The position numbers were made by a program, and so were the translations under genes. From a virus, in the IMG/VR virus record IMGVR_UViG_3300036790_000231, positions 27,256-91,255 of that record: 64,000 nucleotides of DNA; one strand, 5' to 3'. Shown piece by piece: positions 9,049-64,000 of this stretch. Position 1 is the first letter of the stretch. Each line of letters begins with the position of its first letter. The notes beneath the pieces were generated by a model. It was not told where the DNA came from and did no database searches. It worked only from the letters and a program-made list of their open reading frames with translations.

Positions 9049-9420
9049 TTATACTAATGGAAATAACTTATTGTCAAAACTAAATACTGTTTCTAAAGTA
9101 ACAGCTAAGCTAATCTCTATTTTTCCTTCCGTATTTATTATAAAATCTCCTATTACTCCACCTATATTTGCATCAATTAATTGTTGCTTTGTTGGATGAT
9201 ATCCTGAAGGTAATTTGGCAATTGCAGCTTCTTTAGATACAGCACCAGATGATTTAATTACGCCTCTTAAATAGACTATTCCATTCGATCCCAATGAACA
9301 TTCTGCATTTGAATATGGTGTTCCTTTATTAGAAATTCCAGTTTCTAATGTAATAGCTTTCCATTCTCCTAAAGAAGAGCTTCCTACTCTAGACCCACCA
9401 GAGCTAGCCATAAAATACAC
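9049..9420 (-). CDS. tail fiber/receptor-binding head-like domain protein
   Basis: NGIVYLRG...IAKLPSGYHP...INTEG..SFDN..F pattern, typical of tail-fiber C-terminal domains. Confidence 0.6.
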   Translation of the reverse strand: MYFMASSGGSRVGSSSLGEWKAITLETGISNKGTPYSNAECSLGSNGIVYLRGVIKSSGAVSKEAAIAKLPSGYHPTKQQLIDANIGGVIGDFIINTEGKIEISLAVTLETVFSFDNKLFPLV

Positions 9421-9763
9421 ATCCTTCGACTTCGCCGCTGACTATTTCCAAATATATTGCATCATTATAAATAGTCGGTGTCTCTACGGGGAAAAAGTCT
9501 CTAGTAGATTCATTACTTTCTAGTGTAATAGTAGTTATGTAATATCCCGCATTAGAAGTTCCATCCCACAGGCGCACCTTTGCCTTTGCATCTCCTGTAG
9601 ACTCTGTTATTGTCCATCCATAAATAGTAGATACTGATTGAACTTTTGCTTCTTCTTCGCCAACTTTCTCATGATTAGGAAGTGGAGTTTCACCAGCTTT
9701 GACCAGCACCGCTGAGGCGGAGATCGCCGGATAGAATGGTGCTCTAAGGGCCTGTGATGCCAT
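9404..9763 (-). CDS. beta-rich probable virion protein
   Basis: ORF in the tail region with its own leader (GGAG RBS). Confidence 0.55.
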   Translation of the reverse strand: MASQALRAPFYPAISASAVLVKAGETPLPNHEKVGEEEAKVQSVSTIYGWTITESTGDAKAKVRLWDGTSNAGYYITTITLESNESTRDFFPVETPTIYNDAIYLEIVSGEVEGCVFYG

Positions 9764-9865
9764 CTTGTCTCCGAGTCGTTCGTTTAGATCTCTGTACTAC
9801 TGAGGAGTCTACCTCATTTCGGCCCGTTCTGGAGAATTTGTAAGATAACAACTATTTAGATAAAT

Positions 9866-10792
9866 TCATGTGGGAGAAATAACATTAAAAGAGAATGAGC
9901 AATTTTTCAATACGCCTATTTCCTTATAAATATAAACAACAAACAAACCTTTTTCAGTAAATGTAACGGCATGATAATCAACACCTGCCGCTCTTGGCGT
10001 GGCAACGGCTGAATAAAATTCTGTACTTTTTGCAGTATGCCAAGTAATTTTATAAATTCCAGTTGAAGTTTTTTCTGAGGTGAATTCATTTTCTTGTTCG
10101 CTTAAAATTTCGCCATTTTCTCCAATCACGCCAAAATATGAATATATGCTTCTAGCACCAAATTTTCTACGTACTGTTCCTTCACCTAGCTTTTCACCTG
10201 TAACAGCTCCATCCAAGATAGCTTCACCGTGTATTGATTCTCTTGCATATTTGCTATTAGCAAAAGTTCTTGCATCTTCTATATAATATGAGGACGAAGA
10301 AGATGCATTTTTAGGAACCAACACGCGAGCGCATCTGAAAGAACTTTGAGGCAATGCCGCAGCCCCTTTATATTCTCCATTTTCCATTTTTGTCTTAGTT
10401 GCTTCCGCAGTAGGAGTACCATTCAGCCATTCCAATTTGGCATAGCTAGAACCTCCAATTTTCAATTCATTTACATCATAAACTCTAAGAATAATTTGGG
10501 CTATTTGTGGATTGACAGAACTTACTTCTACATTGTTAGATGGTGTAGCTGATGTAGAATTTGGAATCTCATATAGTCCATTATAAAATGAATTAGATGA
10601 TTCTTGAATAGCATTAGTTTGAGCTACATAGGCATTCCCCTCATTTACGTTAACTTGAAGACCGGTTCCGGCAGTTACTTTATAATCATTTTCTTCGACT
10701 ACTCCTGCATTAACTAAAGTCTTTGCTATTAATCTATCCTGATAGGAAGGATAGAGAAGGTCTTCACAATCAGCAGGCAATAAAATAGACAT
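9866..10792 (-). CDS. minor tail / fiber-base protein
   Basis: GLQVNVNEGNAY...IILRVYD...GTP...LP pattern typical of actinophage minor tail proteins; DGAVTGEKL repeat. Confidence 0.7.
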   Translation of the reverse strand: MSILLPADCEDLLYPSYQDRLIAKTLVNAGVVEENDYKVTAGTGLQVNVNEGNAYVAQTNAIQESSNSFYNGLYEIPNSTSATPSNNVEVSSVNPQIAQIILRVYDVNELKIGGSSYAKLEWLNGTPTAEATKTKMENGEYKGAAALPQSSFRCARVLVPKNASSSSSYYIEDARTFANSKYARESIHGEAILDGAVTGEKLGEGTVRRKFGARSIYSYFGVIGENGEILSEQENEFTSEKTSTGIYKITWHTAKSTEFYSAVATPRAAGVDYHAVTFTEKGLFVVYIYKEIGVLKNCSFSFNVISPT

Positions 10793-30623: not shown

Positions 30624-31880
30624 CTAAAACGCCTTACCGAGTAAGAAGCACTGCGGCCTACGTAATCTGGGAAACCTTGAGCATCCTTGTCTAAAGTAAG
30701 TAGTCTTTGACTCGTGATCAATAATTATCTCAGATTGAGGTCCAATCTCCTTACGTAGAGAATTCCATGTATCAGATATAACTACAGGGCCATCGGCAAC
30801 ATCTGCGATATTCTCACCCTCGAACACATAATTCGTAGTCATAAGAACCTCTCCATTTTGTAAATAAGTAGTCATAGCCGACTGACCACGATTATATCCA
30901 AGTTCAGTAGCAACTTCATTTGTTTCTTCTCTATAGCCAGAATCTGTAACGATCAGCTTAGGAGGTTCGGCAGCAACCCCACCCTGAGCATCTGATGGAG
31001 TCGAGCCCCACAGCAAGCTAAGAATGTCATCTACAGTCGGGAGAAAAGCATTCCTATCTGTATTGGTTAAATAACCTCTGGCTTGATTTGAGCGCTGCAA
31101 TTTTTCATATGTATAAGAATTCATATGAATACAAGATCCATAAACCCCTGTATCATTACCAATGATTTTCTGCCACGAACGAATATCGTCAATAGGAGTC
31201 GAATTTAACCTATCTGTCCATGGGACCGCAGCAGAAGGCTTATGAGTTTCTAAATAGTTATATTTTATTTCGTATGACTGACCGCCAGCATAATTTACAA
31301 CAAGAGGATTACCCTTGAATACCTGCCAGCGCATAACTTCAGTCAATCTCTCAAAGCGAAGCTGAAGAATTTTTCCAAGAGTGGCAAGATCTACACCGGC
31401 ACGTGCTCTAATTGCTCCAACATCAGAAGTTAATCTAATATAAAGATCCTCCGAAATAGGAGACATTTCATCAAGTAACAGAAGCTCTGTGACTTCCTCT
31501 GTATAATTGATCTTTGGATTATAAATTGCAGGAGTTGCATTTGGCGCTCTAAACTGGCCGATACCAAACGGAGCAACCTCGGCAATATCCCTGCGAATTA
31601 AGCGATCCATTACTGGTTTGAGCGGAGCAATATCTGCCCCAGGCGATGGAATTGTCTCCCAGGCAGTCAGAAGAGCGCGTCTAACGATATCCGTAAGAGC
31701 GGCCTGCGGATAAAGATCAAAAACATTCAAGCCTACATCGCCAACACCAGGACTGGAGATTTCAGAACCTACACCGGCATCTCCTCCAGCAATAGGCATA
31801 TAAACATTAGCGAACCACTCTTCGATTCTCCTACTATCATCTATTCTCTTATTTTCCTTTGTCATTTTGGCTTTTGCCAT
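30624..31880 (-). CDS. major capsid protein (HK97 fold, lambda gpE-like)
   Basis: RLTEVMRWQVF.G, W...NSTPIDDI..W and MN...Y..L motifs, C-terminal FPRL..P; follows the protease and decoration genes. Confidence 0.85.
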   Translation of the reverse strand: MAKAKMTKENKRIDDSRRIEEWFANVYMPIAGGDAGVGSEISSPGVGDVGLNVFDLYPQAALTDIVRRALLTAWETIPSPGADIAPLKPVMDRLIRRDIAEVAPFGIGQFRAPNATPAIYNPKINYTEEVTELLLLDEMSPISEDLYIRLTSDVGAIRARAGVDLATLGKILQLRFERLTEVMRWQVFKGNPLVVNYAGGQSYEIKYNYLETHKPSAAVPWTDRLNSTPIDDIRSWQKIIGNDTGVYGSCIHMNSYTYEKLQRSNQARGYLTNTDRNAFLPTVDDILSLLWGSTPSDAQGGVAAEPPKLIVTDSGYREETNEVATELGYNRGQSAMTTYLQNGEVLMTTNYVFEGENIADVADGPVVISDTWNSLRKEIGPQSEIIIDHESKTTYFRQGCSRFPRLRRPQCFLLGKAF

Positions 31881-42799: not shown

Positions 42800-44658
42800 C
42801 TACCTCATCAGGTAATTATTCGTTTTGATCCTATTATTATTCTCGACCTCTAGGCGTGCGCGGCCAGCGCGGAGCGTGCGCGTCGATTTAGCGCCCTTTA
42901 CCTTTTTCCAGCGGGACTGATGAAGATGGTACAGATCCCATCCCTGCGATCGTACTCCTTTATCATTTTCTCGGGAGAAAAATATGAACCTATATCGTCC
43001 ATCTTCTGTCTCAAACATTCCCTTTCTCAAAAGTCTTCCCGGCCGAGGATGAGATTGGTATAAAGGATCCTTTTGTATTGATCTAATTGATTTTAGCATA
43101 ATTCTTTATGTCTTTTTCTTACTTTACGAGGTACTCTCTCTATTTTTGCCTCTATCTCTATATCAGAAATACATTCATCACATATTAGACTATTTTTTAT
43201 TTTTCCGCAAGTTCTACATATAACTTTATTGTACCAAAGCATTTTGTTCTTCCTTCGCTTCTTTAACTATTTTTTTTAGCTTCCTTATTATTGTTCTCTT
43301 ATCCCTTGCGTTATCATTATATGAAATTAAATTACCTATCTTATCGCTAAGATAGGAAAAAATGACTTTATTGTATGGTAAATTTAAATCAAACTGGGCT
43401 CTATTTAATGCTCCCCACACACAAAATGATGTTGCGTTAGGACTGTTGTGCCTTACTTCTTTCCCTGAATTATCCTTTGCGAAGGATTCTCTGCACCATC
43501 CTTTTTCAAGCAATAATATCATTCTTTCAATAATTCTTATGTTACTATCCATTTTTCTCTACCTCGATAGCTGCCATCTTACATAATTCAGAACAATTTA
43601 TAACAACGTCCATCCAGCTTCTTTGATATGCCTTGATAGTTATTTCTTTAGACTTGTTTATAAGAGGGGTTATCGGGTCAACATTCGCTAATTGCCCCTT
43701 TTGAGACTCTATTTTAGCTAATCTACTTCTTATTTCGCTCATTTCTTCATATAAATTCATATTTTTCCTCTCATATATTCCAAATGAACGTCGCATTATC
43801 AGGTAGATTGTTTCTAAATCTATCTGGTATCATTCCTTGATGCCATAAATTAGTTGTCTCTAATCTTTTTCCACTGTTAAATTGTATAATAAACTTTGAT
43901 CCACCAAATCCTCGTCCAAGAGTTTGGAATATATTTCTAGGAGTCTCTTCTCCTATAATATAATGTCTATTGTTTACAACAACGGCTTTCTCTGGATTTA
44001 TTTCATCTGATCTTATTATAGCAGTCCAAAATGCGCAATCAAAACACAATTCCTTATTAAACATTTCTTCGCTTATGTCTCCTAGAAAATAATTTTCTTC
44101 TAGTTTATTACATATAATACATTTAATTATCGTATTCATCTTTTTACCCCTATAAATCTATTTTATATTCTAGCATTCCCGTTCCATCATTTTTATAGAA
44201 GGATTTATTTCATTTATTTATATAGTAGGAGATCCGTCCATCCTCACTCTGCTTTCGGCATCCAGGCTAGGGAAACCTGGCCGATGAAACGGTGTACTTT
44301 CTCCCTTTACCCGAGGATCGACTATATGGGCCGGGGCAATATCTATTGTAGCACAACTCGGGAAGAAAGCAAACCCTATGCGCGCCTACGCGCGGGCGAA
44401 TACAGTCTAATGATTTTTATTATTATATATATAGTTTTATTCTATACTTAATTAACTATTTTCTTTGATTCTTTCTTTTTCCTCCCTAATTAAATCAGAT
44501 TCAATTTCTTTTATTCTATTTACTAGATTAGATTCTAGATTGCGCATTCTTGTATCATATTCAATTAGTATATTGTTTATTTGCTCAAATCCCCTATATA
44601 TTTGTTCAAATTGATCAAAGATTTCCTCCTTATTTATTTCATTTTCTATATTTATCAT
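42800..44658 (-). other. cluster of small hypothetical CDS (42800-43099, 43226-43552, 43545-43796, 43771-44139, 44452-44658)
   Basis: Co-oriented short ORFs. 43226-43552 has a GWC..FA...FCVWGAL..YND motif common in small phage proteins. Confidence 0.5.
44230..44340. ncRNA. candidate structured RNA (GC-rich island)
   Basis: GTCCATCCTC/GAGGATCGAC closing stem and a CATC-CA-GGCTAGG-GAAA-CCTGGCC-GATG hairpin. Minus-strand promoter TTGCTT..TGCTACAAT is adjacent. Confidence 0.45.
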
Positions 44659-45723
44659 TTTATTTTCTCTTACGTATTTGTAGAATAGTTTCGTTATATG
44701 AGCTAGGATACTTTCTTATTACATCTCTTCTTACAATATTCGCTATCCATTTAAACGGATATCCAAGAACCTCTGTCTCTTGCTTAGAGTAAATTATCCA
44801 TATCTGATATCTTCTCCAGAATTTATAAGGTCGTTTAGTCAATAAGGGTTTTGAATCCATACATTTTCCTTTCAAGAATTTTCCGTGTATCCATTGTAGC
44901 ACACTTTTGGCTGTGCTACATCCTCGATCTATTTTGTAGCACAATATATAAATTCATATTATTATTTTTTATATAAATATAAAAAGAAAATATGAGATGT
45001 ATTTTCAATAATTGTGTGAGCTGGCTATAAATAACCTATTCCTATTTTATGCAACTTATGTAAGCTGGCTATCATCGCCCCCTCGGGAGTAATCCATATG
45101 CCAATAAGAAAAGATCCCTGGGGTGGGTACCGTGTGCTACATCGGATCTTTTGGTATTGGTTGATTGTTTTTATCGGGAAGAAAGATAGATGGATACCCT
45201 CAGCGCGGCTGGCGCGCAAGGACCCAGATATTGGCTCAGAGGACTCTAGAATCTCTTCTCCCGATAATTGATTAAGAGATGGAGGGATTGATCACATCGG
45301 CCGCATTCGGCGGCTCAGAGCCAAATTCTGGCGTGCTACAAAGATAAGTAGTTTCTACTTATTGATTAGTTTTTGAAGACGTGCTACATTGATTGAGTTG
45401 GTGCAGCACAGAGGCAGGAACATAGAAAAAGCAGCAGCGTAATGGAGATGGAGCACATGATTGATCGCTACGACCCAGATCATTACCGGACATGGTCGAC
45501 CAAATTGTTGATCTATTCTCTCCCCAAGGAAATCGTGGAGTGTCCAACAGCTGCTCAAGCAATGGTGAGAGCATTGCAACTACGTAACCTCTAACCCTCA
45601 TTCCGGCCAACTTCGCGCGGGCTCGCGGCGATAGGGATTCATAGTCTCTAGTTGGTCATCTGTAAACTATCGGAGGAAAAACATATCGGCGCAATTCCGC
45701 GACGGGATTAGTCGCTGTAGCAC
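44347..45723. repeat. eight copies of GTGCTACA/TGTAGCAC at the divergence region
   Basis: Copies at 44347, 44895, 44913, 44935, 45134, 45333, 45381 and 45716. Confidence 0.8.
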
Positions 45724-46407
45724 AACATAGCGGGTAAGTAGTTGGACCTGTATCGTCACAGAGTGCCAATCCAATCATGGATATGTGGTGACTGATTAGA
45801 TCTCTAATCGGATATCCAACGTGAAGTATGTAATGCACTGCGATGACGACGCGATCGAGTTGAATCTCTAGTAAGTACGAGTGCAGAGCCGTACCATTCT
45901 GAGATTGACAAACACATTGCAGTACAATCTTTTTCGGCCGGATTCAGCGGCGAATGACCAATGTGGAATATGGTTGCATTATCAACATGAATGCGAAGGC
46001 AATCAGATACTTGCAAACGGAACCGACATGGAATACGATTCGTTGGCTGACATTGCAGCATCAAACCTGCGCCGGTCGTGTTGTCAATCAATGATTGGAG
46101 AATCAATGCACAAGCGACCAATCAAGACATTAGTCGAGCAACAGCGTATTGCGAAGCTAGAGATTCGCCCTTGGAGCAATCGTGGACGAACGTAGCGAGT
46201 ATGGATATGCAATCCCATTGACCAATGGTTTTCAACCTTGTACTTGCTTGGGAATTGCGATCGGAGATCCGATAACAGCTTAGTTTATTTGGCCGATCTC
46301 AGTAGTTGTGAGTTGCCTTCAACGGCAAATCGGCCGATGTAGTTCTTCTACCGAATATGTAGTGCTAAACTAATGATTATCAACCTCTAATCATCATTGG
46401 AGAATCA

Positions 46408-49224: not shown

Positions 49225-51077
49225 ATGATAACAATTGAAACTTTAAAGCATAGAAGGTGGATAGAGAAAGAGATAGAATTTGTAAATGGAGATAGAAAAC
49301 ATATTTATGAGATACTTGAGAATTGTAGTCATATTTATAAACTTTATCATGATGAATATGAGGAACTACTTACTTATGCTGAAGGATATTCAGCAGGATG
49401 GCGCCAGAGGATGGAGAGCCAATGTCTGAACTAGACAAGAATGCTCAATTGCGGGAAAGCATAGATAAGGCTACTATTCTCATCGGAGATCTGACGCGCC
49501 AACTTTCTAAAGCCCACGAGAGAATCGGCCGATTGGAAGGAGAAAGGCAAGCCGCCGAGTGGCCAGGAGTGATTGATGGATGGAAAGAAAAGGTCAAGCT
49601 GGGAGAGGATTTGGCTAATATGATTTTGAAATCTGATAATTATATTATTATAGTAAAGACAGCACAAAGAATACTAAAAAATGCCTGAATCCTTTTATGA
49701 TAATGAATGGGCAGCTCCGGCCACAGAGATGGAAGAGTTGAAACGTCCTCTGAGCTATCAACGGCTTATAAAGTTGATGGATGTGATTCGGAATGAGGAC
49801 TCTATTCGGCCCGGTTCTGTGCCTTATACAATTATGTTTGCATTGAGAGAGACTGAAAAGGGAGAAAAAAGATGAAGCACATTCATAGAGATCTTCCAAT
49901 GCTTGAAGTATGGACATCCAATCATACTACGCATGTAGCTTTCAGCACATTTGGAGGAATAGCATTTGGAATATTTACATCAATAATAATAGCTAATTTT
50001 TTCATTCATTTTATTGATAGCTACAAATCTTAAATATTATACGGCAAAAGAGCTAAGAACAGCATATATAATTGCTAGCAGAAATAATAATAAGACTGAG
50101 CTAACGTACTTACATCAAGAGATTAAAGACCGTGGACTATCAATTACTAAAATGATGGAGAAGAAGTGATATATGGTAAGGGAAATAAAATATGCTCAAT
50201 GGGACATTTGATAAGGAGAAAAAATGAAAGAATCTATTGAGAGACAAGAGCTAATAGAAATTACTAAAACAACACTGAAGAAATTTCCTGATCTTTCTGA
50301 ATACAAGAGAAAAAAGCTAATGAAAGCTGCCAAATCAGCTAAATTTATTCTCGTTAATGGCTGGAGGTATAATGAGTGTGGATGCCTGGTTGGAACGGCA
50401 TATTTTAACAGTCTTTCTAATACCAAGTATGTTAACTCTATAGCAATTAAAAAAATATTGGGCCAAGAAATGTTAGAAATAGGAATGTATTTTAATAGAG
50501 AGATTATCAATCATCTAGATGGATTTACTACTTATCCTCCTATTGAACAACGAATAATTGATATTGTAGATTAAATGAATAAAAATATTAAACCCACTAA
50601 AAAAGATTATAATAATTCTCATATTATTCCTCTAATTCCCAATAGAGAACCATCTGACATAGATATATATTCTGCAAGAAATAGAACCGAAGGTTTTATA
50701 CTAGGGACTATAATCGCGTGAATGATAATGCTAAGATATGGGTGAATTTGCTACGAAGTAAAGAATACTTTCAAACTCATGGAAGGCTAAGCAGTACAGG
50801 ACATATACTCCATTATCCCCTATATTGTTGTTTAGGAGTTGCTTGTGTAGCGTACGAACAATCAGAAGGAACCATCGATCCTAGTTGGAAAAATGATACA
50901 ATTCTCCCTATACAAGTAAGAAAATGGCTTAACCTAAAAAGCCCGCTTGGATCATATGAGGATTCTTTTGGGAATAATACTTCCCTAGTACAAGATAATG
51001 ACCTTTATATGAAGGACTTTAATAAAATAGCAGCAATCATTGAAAGCGAACCACAAGGTCTTTTTGAAGATTCTTGA
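49225..51077 (+). other. cluster of small hypothetical CDS (49225-49434, ~49422-49688, 49681-49875, 50224-50574, 50718-51077)
   Basis: Co-oriented ORFs. 50718-51077 has a W..LRS..Y.Q..GRL..YCCLGVAC..ND..F..IA motif. Confidence 0.5.
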
Positions 51078-51192: not shown

Positions 51193-51474
51193 ATGCATAC
51201 ATACACAATTGGTAAGCGCAATGATGTTGTTATGGCAATTCGGGAGAAGAAGCGAGTCACATCGGCCGAGATCGGCGTTGAGACTGCCTATCTCGATGCA
51301 CTGAAGCAGGCTGGAATTGTCGAGGTAATTGATAGAATTCCTACCGGCGGTCGCGGCCGTCCAAGGAACCTTTACAGACTATCGAAGCGTGGTCAGGGTA
51401 TCGCTTTGAATCTCACGCGCAAGGCCCAGAAGGTTTCACAGCCCCGCGCCGAGCAAGAGCTAATTGCAGCATGA
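51193..51474 (+). CDS. winged-helix DNA-binding protein
   Basis: LDALKQAGIVE...GGRGRPRNLYRLS..G. Confidence 0.75.
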   Translation: MHTYTIGKRNDVVMAIREKKRVTSAEIGVETAYLDALKQAGIVEVIDRIPTGGRGRPRNLYRLSKRGQGIALNLTRKAQKVSQPRAEQELIAA

Positions 51475-58161: not shown

Positions 58162-58418
58162 TATCACCTTTGAATCAAATACCCGACGGATAGAACTATT
58201 AAAATGGTTAGAAGTAAATAAAATACATCGTCTAACTACATCTGTTATTTATTCCAAAGCAAGAGGTTTTGATGAATTATATCTTTATGATCCTACAGAA
58301 TTTCCTCCATCTCGTACAGTAGGAATGCTTAGGTGCAGAAGAGATCTAGATCTGCTGCACAAACATTCGCTAATAAATAGACATCAATATCTCAATAGTG
58401 AGATAGAATGGTCCTTAA

Positions 58419-59480: not shown

Positions 59481-60053
59481 ATGATTATATGCTACGTATT
59501 TAATAGTTGGTACTTATCAATAAGAGATATTTGGTACATCAATCATGAGCCATCAGGTTCTAGCGATGATATTTTTGAGGATAAAATTAGACAAATTTTA
59601 AGAGAAGAGATGGCACAAATTCCATTTAAGATTGATATACCGGATAGGCTAGATGAGAGATAATAATACAATTATACATGATGAATGCAACTCTATTAAA
59701 TTTACAATTAATCTGCCAGATCATTGTACAGAAGGCGATTTGCAATCGGTAAAGGGCGCTTTATATAATGCTGCTACATTTTACATAGACTGGGAAAAAC
59801 TCTACAATAGAACGAGTGATACAATATCTATCCCAGGTATTATACTTCTAACAATTGCTAACGAACTTAAATGAACGAAGATAAATCTACATATTATAAG
59901 TTTCCTAAGACTTTAGCATTTTTTCTTCTGGGAATGGTTTTCGGAATCGTATTATCTACTGGAATCATTCTTGGAATATTTTTATCTCCAGGATATTATT
60001 TAATAATGATAATATGTGGTTTAATATTGTTTTCATTTTCATTAACAATTTAA
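59481..60053 (+). other. three small hypothetical CDS, the last with two TM helices
   Basis: Coupled ORFs 59481-59663, 59653-59874 and 59871-60053. Confidence 0.45.
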
Positions 60054-60090
60054 ACAAGGAAGGATGACAGAGCGGTAATAAAGTAAAGCG

Positions 60091-60175
60091 AAAGAGCCGC
60101 CCTCAATAAGAAAGACGGCTCAGACGCTAACGAGAGATCTACTAACTGCGTGGGGAGACAATTCCAAGCAGCTAA
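60091..60175 (-). ncRNA. candidate trans-acting antisense sRNA (~85 nt)
   Basis: Minus-strand TTCCCG-18-TACAAT promoter with TG extension; terminator GAGCCGTCTTT/GAGGGCGGCTC+TTT whose G-U pairs work only on the minus strand; body complementary to two RBS leaders. Confidence 0.6.
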
Positions 60176-60250
60176 TAGTTATTGTAGCATAAATTGAAAT
60201 GGATCGGGAAGAAAATCACATCGGCCGCTAACGCGGTCAGGGAGGCATTA

Positions 60251-60721
60251 ATGAAGAAAATTTACGCAGTTAGTTCTGGCAGTTATAGTGATTATAGGGT
60301 GGATCTTATTTTTACAGATAGGAAAAAGTCTGAAGAATATTGTTCAATTGAAAATAGTTCATTTGATCATATTTATTATGATGATAAGTTTCGAGTAGAG
60401 GAATTTTATTTAGTTGATAAAGAGAAAATAAATAGGATATACATAGCGAGAATTATTTCTCGCAATGGAGATATGAATATCTCTGTTAGAGCTTATATAG
60501 GGAATCCTTCTAAGTATACAAGACCTCAAACTGAAACAAAGTTGCAACATTGTTGGGATCCAAGATATAAAACTAGAATAGCATATATGGAATTTATCTC
60601 TCGATGTATAGACCAAAAGCTTGCCGAAAAGTCTGTACAAGATAAATTTAAGCAGTACAAAGCGGAAAAAGAACTTGGTTATATTCCTTCTCCCACGACG
60701 GCGGCCAAAGTGATACAATGA
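60251..60721 (+). CDS. hypothetical protein
   Basis: ATG at 60251 after GGAGG; KIYAVSSGSYSDYRV..IF motif. Confidence 0.6.
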   Translation: MKKIYAVSSGSYSDYRVDLIFTDRKKSEEYCSIENSSFDHIYYDDKFRVEEFYLVDKEKINRIYIARIISRNGDMNISVRAYIGNPSKYTRPQTETKLQHCWDPRYKTRIAYMEFISRCIDQKLAEKSVQDKFKQYKAEKELGYIPSPTTAAKVIQ

Positions 60722-60763
60722 AAACCAGACGAGATCTACTAACGACTAAAGGAGACGATCCCG

Positions 60764-61003
60764 TTGGCGCTGCGCGTGAATTTCAATTTTTATGCATCTC
60801 CCGGCAATGTTGAAAACGAGACATTAAGCGAGCCTAAGACTCTCGCTGAATGGCAGGAAAAGACGAAAGAAGCCAAGGAAGAATTAGGTGGATTCGTTTT
60901 TTGTAAAAGGGCTCCAGATCCGGCCGATCTTTCAAAAGAACCAGAATTACTTGTTAACATTGAAAATGTTAGAAGTGTTCTCGTAGTAGAAGGAGGAGTA
61001 TAA
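60764..61003 (+). CDS. 79-aa hypothetical protein in a stand-alone transcription unit
   Basis: TG-extended TACAAT at 60711-60719, AAGGAG RBS, TTG start, terminator downstream. Confidence 0.7.
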   Translation: MALRVNFNFYASPGNVENETLSEPKTLAEWQEKTKEAKEELGGFVFCKRAPDPADLSKEPELLVNIENVRSVLVVEGGV

Positions 61004-61036: not shown

Positions 61037-61064
61037 AAAAGAGCCCCGAAAGGGGCTCTTTTTT
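61037..61064 (+). terminator. intrinsic terminator, possibly bidirectional
   Basis: AAAAGAGCCCC-GAAA-GGGGCTCTTTTTT. Confidence 0.9.
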
Positions 61065-61479
61065 ATGGAGATATAGAACTATCCAGATCTTCATCCTATA
61101 TCCAAATGGCGTTGGCCCCTTAATTGATCTGGACCATCTTGGCGGGAACAAGCTTATCTAGAGACTTTTACTTGCCCAAATAGGTAGCAGGAAAATCAAA
61201 AAAGTATGCACGTACTTTTTCAACTCTCTCTAGACCTATGTTCGCGAGGGACATTCAAAAGCGTGGCAGAAAGCTATTGAGAGACTTTCACTTTTGCCAA
61301 TAAGTAGTCTCAAAAAATCAAGTCTTTTACTTGACTCCTTCTCTCAACTTATCGTGTCTCGGTAGGCTGCGTCCCGTATTGCTACTACTACTACTACTAG
61401 CACACTTCTCCCATGAAAGGGGGTAGGTTTTGACCTCGTCACATACGTCACAAACTATTGGAGGCGGTAGGTTCTGGAA

Positions 61480-61788
61480 GTGCGCAAACCGAAGACGACG
61501 GGATCAGCCGGTATCGGCATCTGCATCCTGCTCGCGATCCTTCCCTGGCGAGGCATAATGCTGCCTACATGGGGATTCATTCTCGGCTTGGTCGTCGCGG
61601 TCGGTTTCATTGCCTACTCCATTGTCTCGTTACTTCTTGGGCTTCTTTCAAGACGGCGCACCAGCAGGGGGTCGCCGATCGACAACAGCGACTTGATGAT
61701 CACGCTCTACGGAGTACAAGAGGAGGAACGCGAGAAGCGTGCGCGTCGAATGGCCAACGAACAAATCGACCGCGAAGCAAGAATTTAG
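61480..61788 (+). CDS. small membrane protein
   Basis: Hydrophobic WGFILGLVVAVGFIAYSIVSLLL and a charged tail. Confidence 0.5.
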   Translation: MRKPKTTGSAGIGICILLAILPWRGIMLPTWGFILGLVVAVGFIAYSIVSLLLGLLSRRRTSRGSPIDNSDLMITLYGVQEEEREKRARRMANEQIDREARI

Positions 61789-61828
61789 GCTATCCCCCAC
61801 AAGGGGGTAGATGTGCTACAGTAGGTGA

Positions 61829-62800
61829 ATGCCGCCTGCTGATCGCAACAACCCTGTACGTGGCCGCGCTGGCGGCACCGATTCGCGTTACTCCCTGATG
61901 GAGTTCATGCGGGATTACCCCGACGACGCAACATGTCTTGAGTTCCTTTGGCGCGAGCGCTACGCGCCGGACGGCCATCACATGCAATGCCCGAAATGTG
62001 CTCGTGAAAGAAAGTTTCATCGCGTAAAGAATCGCCCATGCTACGACTGCGATACCTGCGGATATCATTTGCATCCTCTTGCGGGAACAATCTTTGAGAA
62101 ATCATCGACTTCTTTGCAGCTTTGGTTTTATGCGATCTTTCTTATGGTAAGCACTCGTTGCGGGATCTCCGCCAAGCAGCTTGAGCGTGAGTTAGGTGTG
62201 ACTTACAAGACTGCTTGGAGAATGTTCAATAAGATCCGCAATGATTTGATGATTGAAGATGATGAGAAACTTCGCGGAGACGTCGAGATAGATGAGGCTT
62301 CCGTTGATGGCAAGCCCAGAAAGAGGCCTGGTGATTCTGGTCAAATTGCCCTTGGGCCTTCTCGGCGCTCTGAGGCAGCGAAATTGCGCGAACATAGTAG
62401 AGCGACGGTATTTGCGGCTGTAGAACGTGGAGGGTGCGTAAAGGCGACTGTACTTCCTTCGCGGCGCGGCCCTGCGCTGAAGAAGCAGGTCATCGAGTGG
62501 GTCGAACCGCAATCGATCGTGATTACCGATGAGTGGCCAGCGTACAACGGCTTGAACCGGCACTTCATCGACCATAGTCGAATCAATCATTCAACAGGTA
62601 TATATGTTGAAGGTGATACCCATACGAATACCATTGAGGGATTCTTCGGCCACGTCAAGCCGTCGATCAGAGGCACCTATCGCAAGGTGTCGCACAAGTG
62701 GTTGCAGGGCTACTTGAACGAGTTCACGTTCCGCTACAACCATCGCGACGACAATCGCGCGATGTTCGAGACGCTACTTCTGCGTGCTGCTGGGAGCTAG
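61829..62800 (+). CDS. IS1595-family (ISXO2-like DDE) transposase
   Basis: CPKC..CDTC zinc ribbon, GISAKQLERELGVTYKTAW HTH, VEIDE, ITDEW..Y, HTNTIEGFF and YLNEFTFRYN. Confidence 0.95.
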   Translation: MPPADRNNPVRGRAGGTDSRYSLMEFMRDYPDDATCLEFLWRERYAPDGHHMQCPKCARERKFHRVKNRPCYDCDTCGYHLHPLAGTIFEKSSTSLQLWFYAIFLMVSTRCGISAKQLERELGVTYKTAWRMFNKIRNDLMIEDDEKLRGDVEIDEASVDGKPRKRPGDSGQIALGPSRRSEAAKLREHSRATVFAAVERGGCVKATVLPSRRGPALKKQVIEWVEPQSIVITDEWPAYNGLNRHFIDHSRINHSTGIYVEGDTHTNTIEGFFGHVKPSIRGTYRKVSHKWLQGYLNEFTFRYNHRDDNRAMFETLLLRAAGS

Positions 62801-63055
62801 CTCGTCTACCAGCTCGCCTGGGCGCACATCGAGCCCTCTGGCAAGGCGCAGGATCGTCGTCAGACGTGGCTCACGAGCGCCGCGCTCGAAGCGTCCGATC
62901 GCGGTGGGATGCACGTCTGTAGCGCGCGATAGATCGTCCTGAGAGACGCCGTGCTGGGCTCGAAGCTCTTTTAGGCGCTTGCCGAAGGCGACGCTGGCGG
63001 CCTTTGGGTCCTGGTCGAGATGATCCATCCCTGGATGCTCGCCGCTGGAGGCCAA
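62774..63055 (-). CDS. XRE-family HTH regulator
   Basis: FGKRLKELRAQHGVSQDDL...HPTAIGRFERGAREP.L.TILRLARGL. Confidence 0.9.
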   Translation of the reverse strand: MASSGEHPGMDHLDQDPKAASVAFGKRLKELRAQHGVSQDDLSRATDVHPTAIGRFERGAREPRLTTILRLARGLDVRPGELVDELAPSSTQK

Positions 63056-63463
63056 GCGGTCCAGAGCGCATTGGTAGAGAGCGCTTTGGTAGGGTTCTGG
63101 GCTTCTGTAGAGCGCCTGGTCCAGAACCGAGGAGATCGTACCGTGATTGGCCTAGTATTTCTTGTCGTGCTCGTAACTATCGTCTGGGTTGCGCTTGATG
63201 CTCGCGACCACGATTTCTCTTACAGCAGAGGAATGCATTCAACCGCCGGTTGGGTTATTGGATGCATTTTGCTTTGGATTGTTTTCTTTCCCTGGTATGT
63301 AATTGAACGCCGAAAGGTTCCAACCAGAAAGGGACTTCAGGTCGAAGGGGCTTCTGCTGATCTTGAGAATTTGCAGAAATTGGCCGATCTATATAACAAG
63401 GGAATTCTCACAAGTGCAGAGATGGAAGAACAAAAGGCAAAGATACTGAAGAGACTTACATAG
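63020..63463 (+). CDS. membrane protein with a C-terminal SHOCT domain (true start probably ~63143)
   Basis: WVALDA..W..GCILLWIVFFPWY..RR and LQKLADL..GILT.AE.EEQKAKIL. Confidence 0.75.
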   Translation: MIHPWMLAAGGQAVQSALVESALVGFWASVERLVQNRGDRTVIGLVFLVVLVTIVWVALDARDHDFSYSRGMHSTAGWVIGCILLWIVFFPWYVIERRKVPTRKGLQVEGASADLENLQKLADLYNKGILTSAEMEEQKAKILKRLT

Positions 63464-63595
63464 CTATTTATCTTTGGGAATTGGCTTCGCCGCTTTCTTT
63501 AGGGCGTCCAATACATCCTTCTTCTTGGGTACGGGAATCTCGTATCCCTTTGGAGTCTTTTCTTTAGGTTTTGAATCATCTTTTTTGTCGGTCAT
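63464..63595 (-). CDS. small basic protein (43 aa)
   Basis: MTDKKDDSKPKEKTPKGYEIPVPKKKDVLDALKKAAKPIPKDK*. Confidence 0.5.
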   Translation of the reverse strand: MTDKKDDSKPKEKTPKGYEIPVPKKKDVLDALKKAAKPIPKDK

Positions 63596-63616
63596 ACAGA
63601 GGAGAATAGCGCGTCA

Positions 63617-64000
63617 TGGAGGAGTTGCTAGCCGGTGTCCGTGCGAAGTTGGATAGGGCAAATAGCCAATTGGAAACTCTTGAACGCGAAATCAAGGCTT
63701 TTCGCAAACGTCGGACATATCGCATCGAAGGTGAGTTTGAGGCTCAACGCAGCGGATATGTCTTCCGGCTTGATGTTATCGAATGGCCACCGATAGCTTG
63801 GGGCGTCCTTAGCGGAGAGATCGTCCACAACGCCCGTTCGGCTCTTGATAACCTCGTTTGGCAACTTATCCTTCTCAACGGACAACAACCGGGGGAATGG
63901 AGTAGCTTCCCTATCTGGGATTCTGGGAAGGCCGAGACATTCCTTTGTGAGTCCCAGCGTCCACCTATGAAAAAACGACGGCCCGGTAAACTCTATGGAG
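63617..64000 (+). CDS. hypothetical protein, possibly HEPN-like (runs off the window)
   Basis: ATG at 63617: AKLDRA..L..L...GEIVHNARSALDNLVWQL...FPI. Confidence 0.55.

Follow-up and report, generated by a model that had tools for sequence, protein, structure and literature searches.

To our knowledge, few phage small RNAs (sRNAs) that regulate genes of their own phage in trans are known, and nearly all of these come from temperate enterobacterial phages. A likeness to the locus reported here is found in the c4 antisense RNA of phages P1 and P7 (Citron & Schuster 1990, as cited in PMC8198154), which in the account given there is a small phage RNA with short blocks complementary to repeated leader or ribosome-binding-site (RBS) sequences of genes encoded elsewhere, represses by pairing with the RBS, and is related to its targets by sequence repetition. 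According to the same account, c4 is however cut from the transcript of an operon on the same strand, and in a temperate phage it acts on icd/ant, which lie downstream in that operon (PMC8198154), whereas the RNA predicted here would have its own opposite-strand promoter and terminator, with targets 0.6 kb and 50 kb away. The OOP RNA of lambda and the sar RNA of P22 are likewise comparable, being antisense RNAs of ~70-90 nt with their own promoter and intrinsic terminator that lie between or within opposed genes; sar blocks initiation of ant translation, while OOP triggers RNase III cleavage of cII mRNA (PMC12197685). Both are however restricted to acting in cis on an overlapping transcript (PMC12197685), whereas the main targets of the predicted RNA are in trans and the plus-strand sequence that it overlaps is a non-coding spacer. 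In the 6C RNA of M. tuberculosis an exposed pyrimidine-rich loop, to be compared with UGUCUCCCC in the predicted RNA, pairs with the G-rich Shine-Dalgarno (SD) sequence of several mRNAs, but 6C is a chaperone-independent, conserved bacterial sRNA with an Rfam family (PMC6486639), whereas the predicted RNA is phage-encoded, is without an Rfam match and has a second seed in a linker. Finally, VpdS of phage VP882 and PreS of lambda are phage-encoded sRNAs that base-pair in trans, with VpdS influencing mRNAs of both the phage and its host (PMC12197685; bioRxiv 10.1101/2024.10.31.621285). These two are however Hfq-dependent, belong to temperate phages of Gram-negative hosts and were found experimentally; they bear no sequence relationship to it, and in their case target and regulator have no common origin.

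The predicted RNA matches no known family by sequence, and by analogy it resembles OOP and sar in its anatomy, P1 c4 in its logic of repeated target blocks and RBS occlusion, and 6C in its pyrimidine-rich anti-SD loop. We regard the site from which it would be transcribed, termed site C below, as a plausible phage sRNA gene, a reading to which we would give about an even chance.

The repeated motif and its three sites

The 64 kb of DNA analysed (the window) form the end of a 91,255-bp IMG/VR virus record that stems from a soil metagenome and is ~98% complete according to CheckV. A search of sequencing runs for this DNA found no RNA run, and the only run listed gave the identical source DNA contig, without variants. 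The G+C content of the window is ~37%, and gene orientation switches from minus to plus at ~45 kb. The pattern GAGATCTA-N12-GGAGAC has exactly three exact matches against 0.00 expected from 100 shuffles, and these are the only copies in the entire 91,255-bp record, while each of the 80 other viral contigs listed as having it contains just one. Two extra copies of GAGATCTA, at 58341 and 45797, lack the GGAG partner and were rejected as cassettes. The initial annotation of this DNA had reported the motif three times at identical spacing, twice in the 5' UTR and SD region of a gene (60764 and 9763) and once with no start codon after it, and both the count and the coordinates were confirmed. The sites and the cassettes around them are as follows.

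60731-60756, plus strand: site A, motif copy over the RBS, its end 7 nt 5' of TTG 60764
9767-9792, minus strand: site B, motif copy over the RBS, its end 3 nt 5' of ATG 9763
60134-60159, plus strand: site C, orphan cassette copy with the motif kept, without a start codon and without a sense -10
60688-60763, plus strand: cassette A, with a TTCTCC box, the extended -10 TGATACAAT (60711-60719), the leader with the motif, and the SD GGAG (60751-60754)
9764-9836, minus strand: cassette B, with a TTCTCC box (9836-9831), TAGACT, and the leader with the motif (9792-9767)

Downstream of site C a frame check found no ATG, GTG or TTG frame, and the promoter and terminator scan found neither element on the plus strand at this site. 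The similarity between the sites nevertheless extends past the motif. The upstream regions of A and B align over ~80 nt, from the TTCTCC box through GGCC, the -10 and the leader to the SD, with a local alignment score of 41 against 19.8 +/- 3.7 in shuffles, which bears out the earlier remark that AACGACT and TTCTCC..GGCC are common to the two target leaders. Sites C and B are homologous over 31 nt upstream of the motif with 21/31 ungapped identities, the C-versus-B alignment scoring 39 against 20.4 +/- 3.8 in shuffles, and A and C have a common stretch of 32 nt at 75% identity, with CTAAC after block 1 and CAGAC before it in both. Judging from these alignments, a single promoter-leader cassette of ~85 bp is present at all three sites in diverged form.

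The predicted RNA and its potential pairing with two leaders

Around site C the minus strand has the elements of a short transcription unit, which sits inside the 197-nt spacer between two plus-strand genes.

60181-60210, minus strand: predicted sRNA promoter, with TTCCCG (60210-60205), an 18-nt spacer and the extended -10 TATGcTACAAT (TG-c-TACAAT at 60189-60181, hexamer 60186-60181)
60173-60085, minus strand: predicted non-coding RNA of ~89 nt, starting near 60173 and with the end of its T-rich tail near 60085
60144-60173, minus strand: 5' hairpin with a 10-nt apical loop (60163-60154) that holds the anti-SD GUCUCC (complement of 60154-60159)
60129-60143, minus strand: single-stranded linker with UAGAUCUC (complement of 60134-60141), unpaired in the MFE and centroid structures
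60121-60094, minus strand: terminator hairpin of 11 bp, with 6 G-C and 3 G-U pairs, found by the terminator scan

The promoter is present as first described, TTCCCG-18-TACAAT with a TG extension. Its -10 is of the TRTG-type extended kind (TGCTACAAT), but the -35-like TTCCCG is weak with a 3/6 match and the promoter is absent from the output of the sigma-70 scan; it should also be mentioned that the promoter and terminator rules are assumed to hold in the host. Genome-wide, TGNTACAAT is commoner than expected (10 against 3.8 +/- 2.0, a count of 10 being reached in 1/300 shuffles), and 9/10 copies are oriented along the local genes, the copy in the sRNA promoter being the only one against them. 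The terminator hairpin begins ~52 nt past the predicted RNA start and is directly followed by TTTCGCTTT, in a T-rich tail (60093-60080) whose T-run is interrupted. The three G-U pairs had been said to make this terminator work on the minus strand only, and indeed the minus-strand hairpin has an MFE of -21.2 kcal/mol (z = -4.9), whereas its plus-strand counterpart has -13.4 and is followed by no T-run. In silico, the predicted RNA is accordingly bracketed by a promoter and an intrinsic terminator at a distance within the 50-300 nt expected of an independent transcription unit.

The 97-nt minus-strand segment 60176-60080 folds with an MFE of -37.3 kcal/mol, and its z of -4.83 is lower than that of the plus strand (-2.54). 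The 5' hairpin, with G-U pairs in its stem, behaves alike, the minus-strand form having -11.5 kcal/mol (z = -2.7) and the plus-strand form -9.4 (z = -2.0). The minus-strand fold leaves both seeds unpaired, GUCUCC in the loop and UAGAUCUC in the linker. Between 60085 and 60173 neither strand holds an ATG, GTG or TTG frame of >=20 aa, and the only frame in the RNA is a 15-codon one with a UUG start 6 nt from the predicted 5' end and without an SD. At gathering score Rfam recognizes only four tRNAs in the window and has no RNA-family match for the predicted RNA, and at 59950-60850 nothing is significant even at E <= 10. What stands in silico of the ~85-nt minus-strand RNA proposed at the outset is a compact non-coding unit of promoter, two hairpins and terminator around C in which both blocks are exposed; the length is now predicted to be 89 nt.

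Targets were ranked by the cofold ddG of the 89-nt RNA against 201 start regions, which was used instead of plain duplexfold, the latter being too permissive on long windows. The 60764 leader (leader A) is by far the best predicted target, with a ddG of -22.1 kcal/mol and rank 1/201, where all 201 start regions have a mean of -5.1 and an sd of 2.9 kcal/mol. The 9763 leader (leader B) reaches -13.2 kcal/mol and rank 4/201, two unrelated start regions scoring slightly better, and the start region of the neighbouring gene 60251 follows with -12.9 kcal/mol and rank 5/201. In view of these ranks A is a strong predicted target, whereas B is plausible but not exceptional. The claim that the RNA pairs with most of the 60764 leader including its SD is upheld by 13 bp over GAGAUCUACUAAC and a further 9-11 bp from the SD to 2 nt before the TTG. 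An additional pairing of CAGACG in leader A with CGTCTG had been claimed and is right for five extra pairs, but not for the sixth, since the last G is already part of the motif. For the SD region of 9763 the pairing likewise stands, with 9 + 8 bp flanking and covering the SD, but the leader's rank makes it a less distinctive target than had been implied. The loop seed covers the SD in both leaders, and both leaders are unstructured (z = -0.05 for A and +1.8 for B, the latter being less structured than its own shuffles). The seeds are accessible in loop and linker, and their duplexes range from -12.7 to -21.9 kcal/mol: in leader A the linker forms 13 bp (-21.9 kcal/mol) and the loop 9 bp (-13.3 kcal/mol), and in leader B the linker forms 9 bp (-13.8 kcal/mol) and the loop 8 bp (-12.7 kcal/mol). 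This complementarity is a result of the common descent of the three cassettes and alone it is no proof of selection for pairing. A 14-nt perfect complement to sRNA nt 8-21 at 31647-31660 on the minus strand (BLAST E = 0.05) was rejected as a target; it is probably due to chance, since it is located within gene 30624-31880, 220 nt into the coding sequence and with no start codon close by.

Alternative readings of the orphan site

The notion that the motif is bound by a phage or host protein, either as a DNA operator immediately 3' of three promoters or as an RNA operator for a translational repressor, with C as a third operator or a decoy and a regulatory RNA superfluous, is the alternative that fares best, even though we consider it unlikely. 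A constant 12-nt distance between two conserved blocks, with variable sequence in between, would suit such a site, GAGA(T/C) recurs 21 bp apart, and all three sites are found 11-21 nt downstream of a -10-like element. Furthermore, one related genome (G001) reuses a promoter and 5'-hairpin (CTCGGCGCGATTTGCGCCGAAA-like) before at least three distant genes (L018, L016 and L015), and these repeats, which look like a shared leader class, suggest that shared leader elements are a habit of the phage group.

G001:C1, 72840-72865, 39292-39314 and 907-919: promoter and hairpin repeats

The motif has however no dyad symmetry, being asymmetric apart from AGATCT and with block centres 19 bp apart, and C is inverted relative to the only nearby promoter. 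In addition, no regulator gene or DNA-binding domain is found among the neighbouring genes (P0004 is DUF7336-like), and binding of a protein would leave the minus-strand terminator, its strand-specific G-U pairs and the exposed blocks unexplained.

We are still more doubtful that C is a decaying cassette relic, left for example after the insertion of gene 60251 or after gene loss, in which case any RNA would act in cis only, in the manner of OOP, and the pairing in trans would be functionless. Such decay is in agreement with the homology of C to A and B beyond the motif and with what C has lost, since the -10, which is TACAAT in A and TAGACT in B, has become AAGACG, and both the TTCTCC box and the start codon are missing. 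It is likewise in agreement with the finding that between genes 59871-60053 and 60251-60721 the scan detects neither a terminator nor a promoter on the plus strand, which makes read-through, and with it a sense transcript across C, likely. However, the motif blocks of C are identical in 14/14 positions in a copy whose flanking cassette is otherwise ~68% identical to B and whose 12-nt spacer is 6/12 identical to A; uniform decay would give such retention a value of 0.68^14 ~0.005. Since this identity is kept even though C cannot act as a plus-strand promoter or RBS, the blocks look selected. Moreover, if the RNA were made together with the leaders, the pairing of 13 + 9 and 9 + 8 bp would be hard to avoid. 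The initial annotation had named the remnant of a duplicated leader among the outcomes that would speak against an sRNA, and C is literally a diverged cassette copy, but such an origin does not refute the sRNA, since the copy kept exactly the two pairing blocks while it lost the sense promoter and the start codon.

A scan for promoter-terminator units (own script, both strands of the whole 91-kb genome) bears on the role of chance. The 182 kb of strand contain 48 sites that are promoter-like and 14 that are terminator-like, the hairpin 60121-60094 being one of the latter. From these counts ~0.4 units per genome are expected by chance, and exactly one unit with an extended -10 and then a terminator within 40-160 nt was found, around site C; the odds of a chance pair bracketing a given 26-nt site are roughly 1e-4 to 1e-2. 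Each element is weak alone (the 13-mer repeat has a BLAST E of 0.2) and the ~0.4 units expected also speak for chance, but that the three matches and the flanking signals are a coincidence with nothing functional at C is very improbable, given three motif copies where none is expected, homology that continues past the motif and a single unit in the genome that falls exactly on the orphan copy.

Target genes, proposed origin and relatives

The two genes whose leaders would be targeted, and the terminator behind the first of them, are the following.

60764-61003, plus strand: target gene A, a 79-aa conserved phage protein with a TTG start
61037-61062, both strands: bidirectional terminator 3' of gene A, found by the terminator scan
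9404-9763, minus strand: target gene B, a 119-aa protein of a widespread phage family of unassigned function

The 79-aa protein has at least 35 homologues, the closest of which (P0068) is 74% identical, has the N-terminus MAQLRVNFNF and is encoded, together with P0007, on a Logan contig of 64,926 bp. In the public gene call (P0056) gene A begins 12 nt later, at GTG 60776, and encodes 75 aa; the start at TTG 60764 is however supported by the homologue N-termini (MALR.. / MAQLRVNFNF), and it places the SD of site A at the correct distance. The protein is charged and hydrophilic, its AF2 model has an alpha/beta fold with a pLDDT of 81, and a fold search with this model gave only weak matches (E >= 0.01) and no clear structural neighbour. 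In relatives its homologue is the second of two tandem paralogues. A type I antitoxin-like role for the RNA, which the initial annotation had considered possible, is in poor agreement with these properties and is not supported: the product is a soluble, hydrophilic and conserved alpha/beta protein with a tandem paralogue rather than a small hydrophobic membrane-active toxin, and the RNA gene neither overlaps nor adjoins gene A, as it lies 0.6 kb upstream with gene 60251-60721 in between.

Three related genomes of ~90 kb (G001-G003) were reached via the 308-aa protein encoded next to gene B and were examined whole; both G001 and G002 have relatives of gene B. The gene B homologue directly follows the 79-aa homologue in G002 and in the JGI contig L028, an adjacency that supports co-regulation of the two target genes and strengthens the link between them that had been drawn initially. 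The clustering of the target genes in one related lineage fits co-regulation here as well. The neighbouring 308-aa "virion structural protein" (9866-10792, minus strand) has weak PHROG head matches; its N-terminal ~175 aa are ~60-70% conserved in relatives while the C-terminal half is variable, a pattern that fits a fibre or receptor-binding protein better than a capsid protein.

If site C is an sRNA gene, as we prefer to read it, its history and action may be pictured as follows. The promoter-leader cassette that heads 60764 and 9763 would have been duplicated to give site C, and the duplicated copy would have lost its sense -10 and start codon while keeping GAGATCTA and GGAGAC, which are now read in antisense. 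A host promoter of the sigma-A type would drive an RNA of ~89 nt from the minus strand, both the transcription and the RNA ends being inferred, and its loop GUCUCC and linker UAGAUCUC would pair with the leaders of 60764 and 9763 to regulatory effect. Pairing would hide the SD and block 30S binding, and perhaps open the duplex to a double-strand RNase, with the outcome that translation of two functionally linked phage genes is held down, delayed or timed. The RNA would also be fully antisense to a read-through plus-strand transcript entering gene 60251, in the way OOP is to cII mRNA (PMC12197685), since that gene has no upstream promoter or terminator of its own. Taken as a whole, the notion of an sRNA gene born from its own target, in which a former promoter region was reshaped into an opposite-strand terminator and a two-seed anti-leader RNA came to co-regulate genes that form one operon in a related phage and are here 50 kb apart, is more tentative than the existence of the gene itself, and we put it forward as a possibility that we ourselves rate below even. 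If true, it would provide a readable case, from an uncultivated 91-kb soil phage, of a regulator that arises by duplication of a target leader and antisense reading, and it would show how a phage can control two genes jointly even though they lie apart; its practical value is limited, as one metagenome contig is all that is available of the phage.

Close relatives were found neither by megablast against phage records nor in IMG/VR by protein-seeded scans with P0004, P0002 and the 308-aa protein, and an exact scan with a longer motif likewise found none, while a JGI metagenome scan with the P0001 family gave one relative, at 42%. In the genomes G001-G003, whose versions of the 79-aa protein are 41-47% identical, neither a repeated GAGATCT motif nor a match to the RNA was found. 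The leader of the homologue in G003 has a single copy of GAGATCTC, which was treated as coincidence. A separate observation in G003 (G003:C1, L027) is that 17 nt at the 3' end of a LysRS-like gene are the exact reverse complement of the paralogue leader hairpin (49848-49864 and 49620-49640); the first paralogue is 200 nt downstream on the same strand, and the pair could form a long-range stem within one transcript.

A few further features of the window deserve mention. From 61400 to 64000 the G+C content is ~0.52, against ~0.37 in most of the window, and this part contains an IS1595-family transposase gene (61829-62800; PF12762, PF12760) whose best relatives, at 82% aa identity, are in Solirubrobacteraceae MAGs. 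The high-G+C end could be an IS insertion, a hint of the host or a chimeric contig end; a guess of a Solirubrobacteraceae host from this transposase was not used as evidence, the phage having 37% G+C. The segments 60141-60151 and 60264-60274 form a perfect 11-nt inverted repeat. In a plus-strand RNA that reads through, the site C spacer could thereby base-pair with gene 60251 at its codons 5-8, and the 11 nt of the coding copy in that gene are found unchanged in the predicted sRNA. Just 5' of gene 60251 there is also a composite repeat, TCGGGAAGAAA ... ATCACATCGGCCG followed by a short GC hairpin, which is found at 60203-60240, at 45173-45184 with 45291-45312, and at 51234-51268. At 60203-60240 it overlaps the opposite-strand -35 region of the sRNA, and it may serve gene 60251 as a leader or promoter element on the plus strand. 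Where the minus-strand and plus-strand gene blocks diverge, at 44340-45725, eight GTGCTACA boxes occur in both orientations, and TGCTACA is found 17 times genome-wide against 8.5 expected. A good -10 ending in T follows only three of the eight boxes, and they may be protein-binding boxes rather than all being promoters. The sRNA promoter has a 7/8 version of the same box, ATGCTACA.
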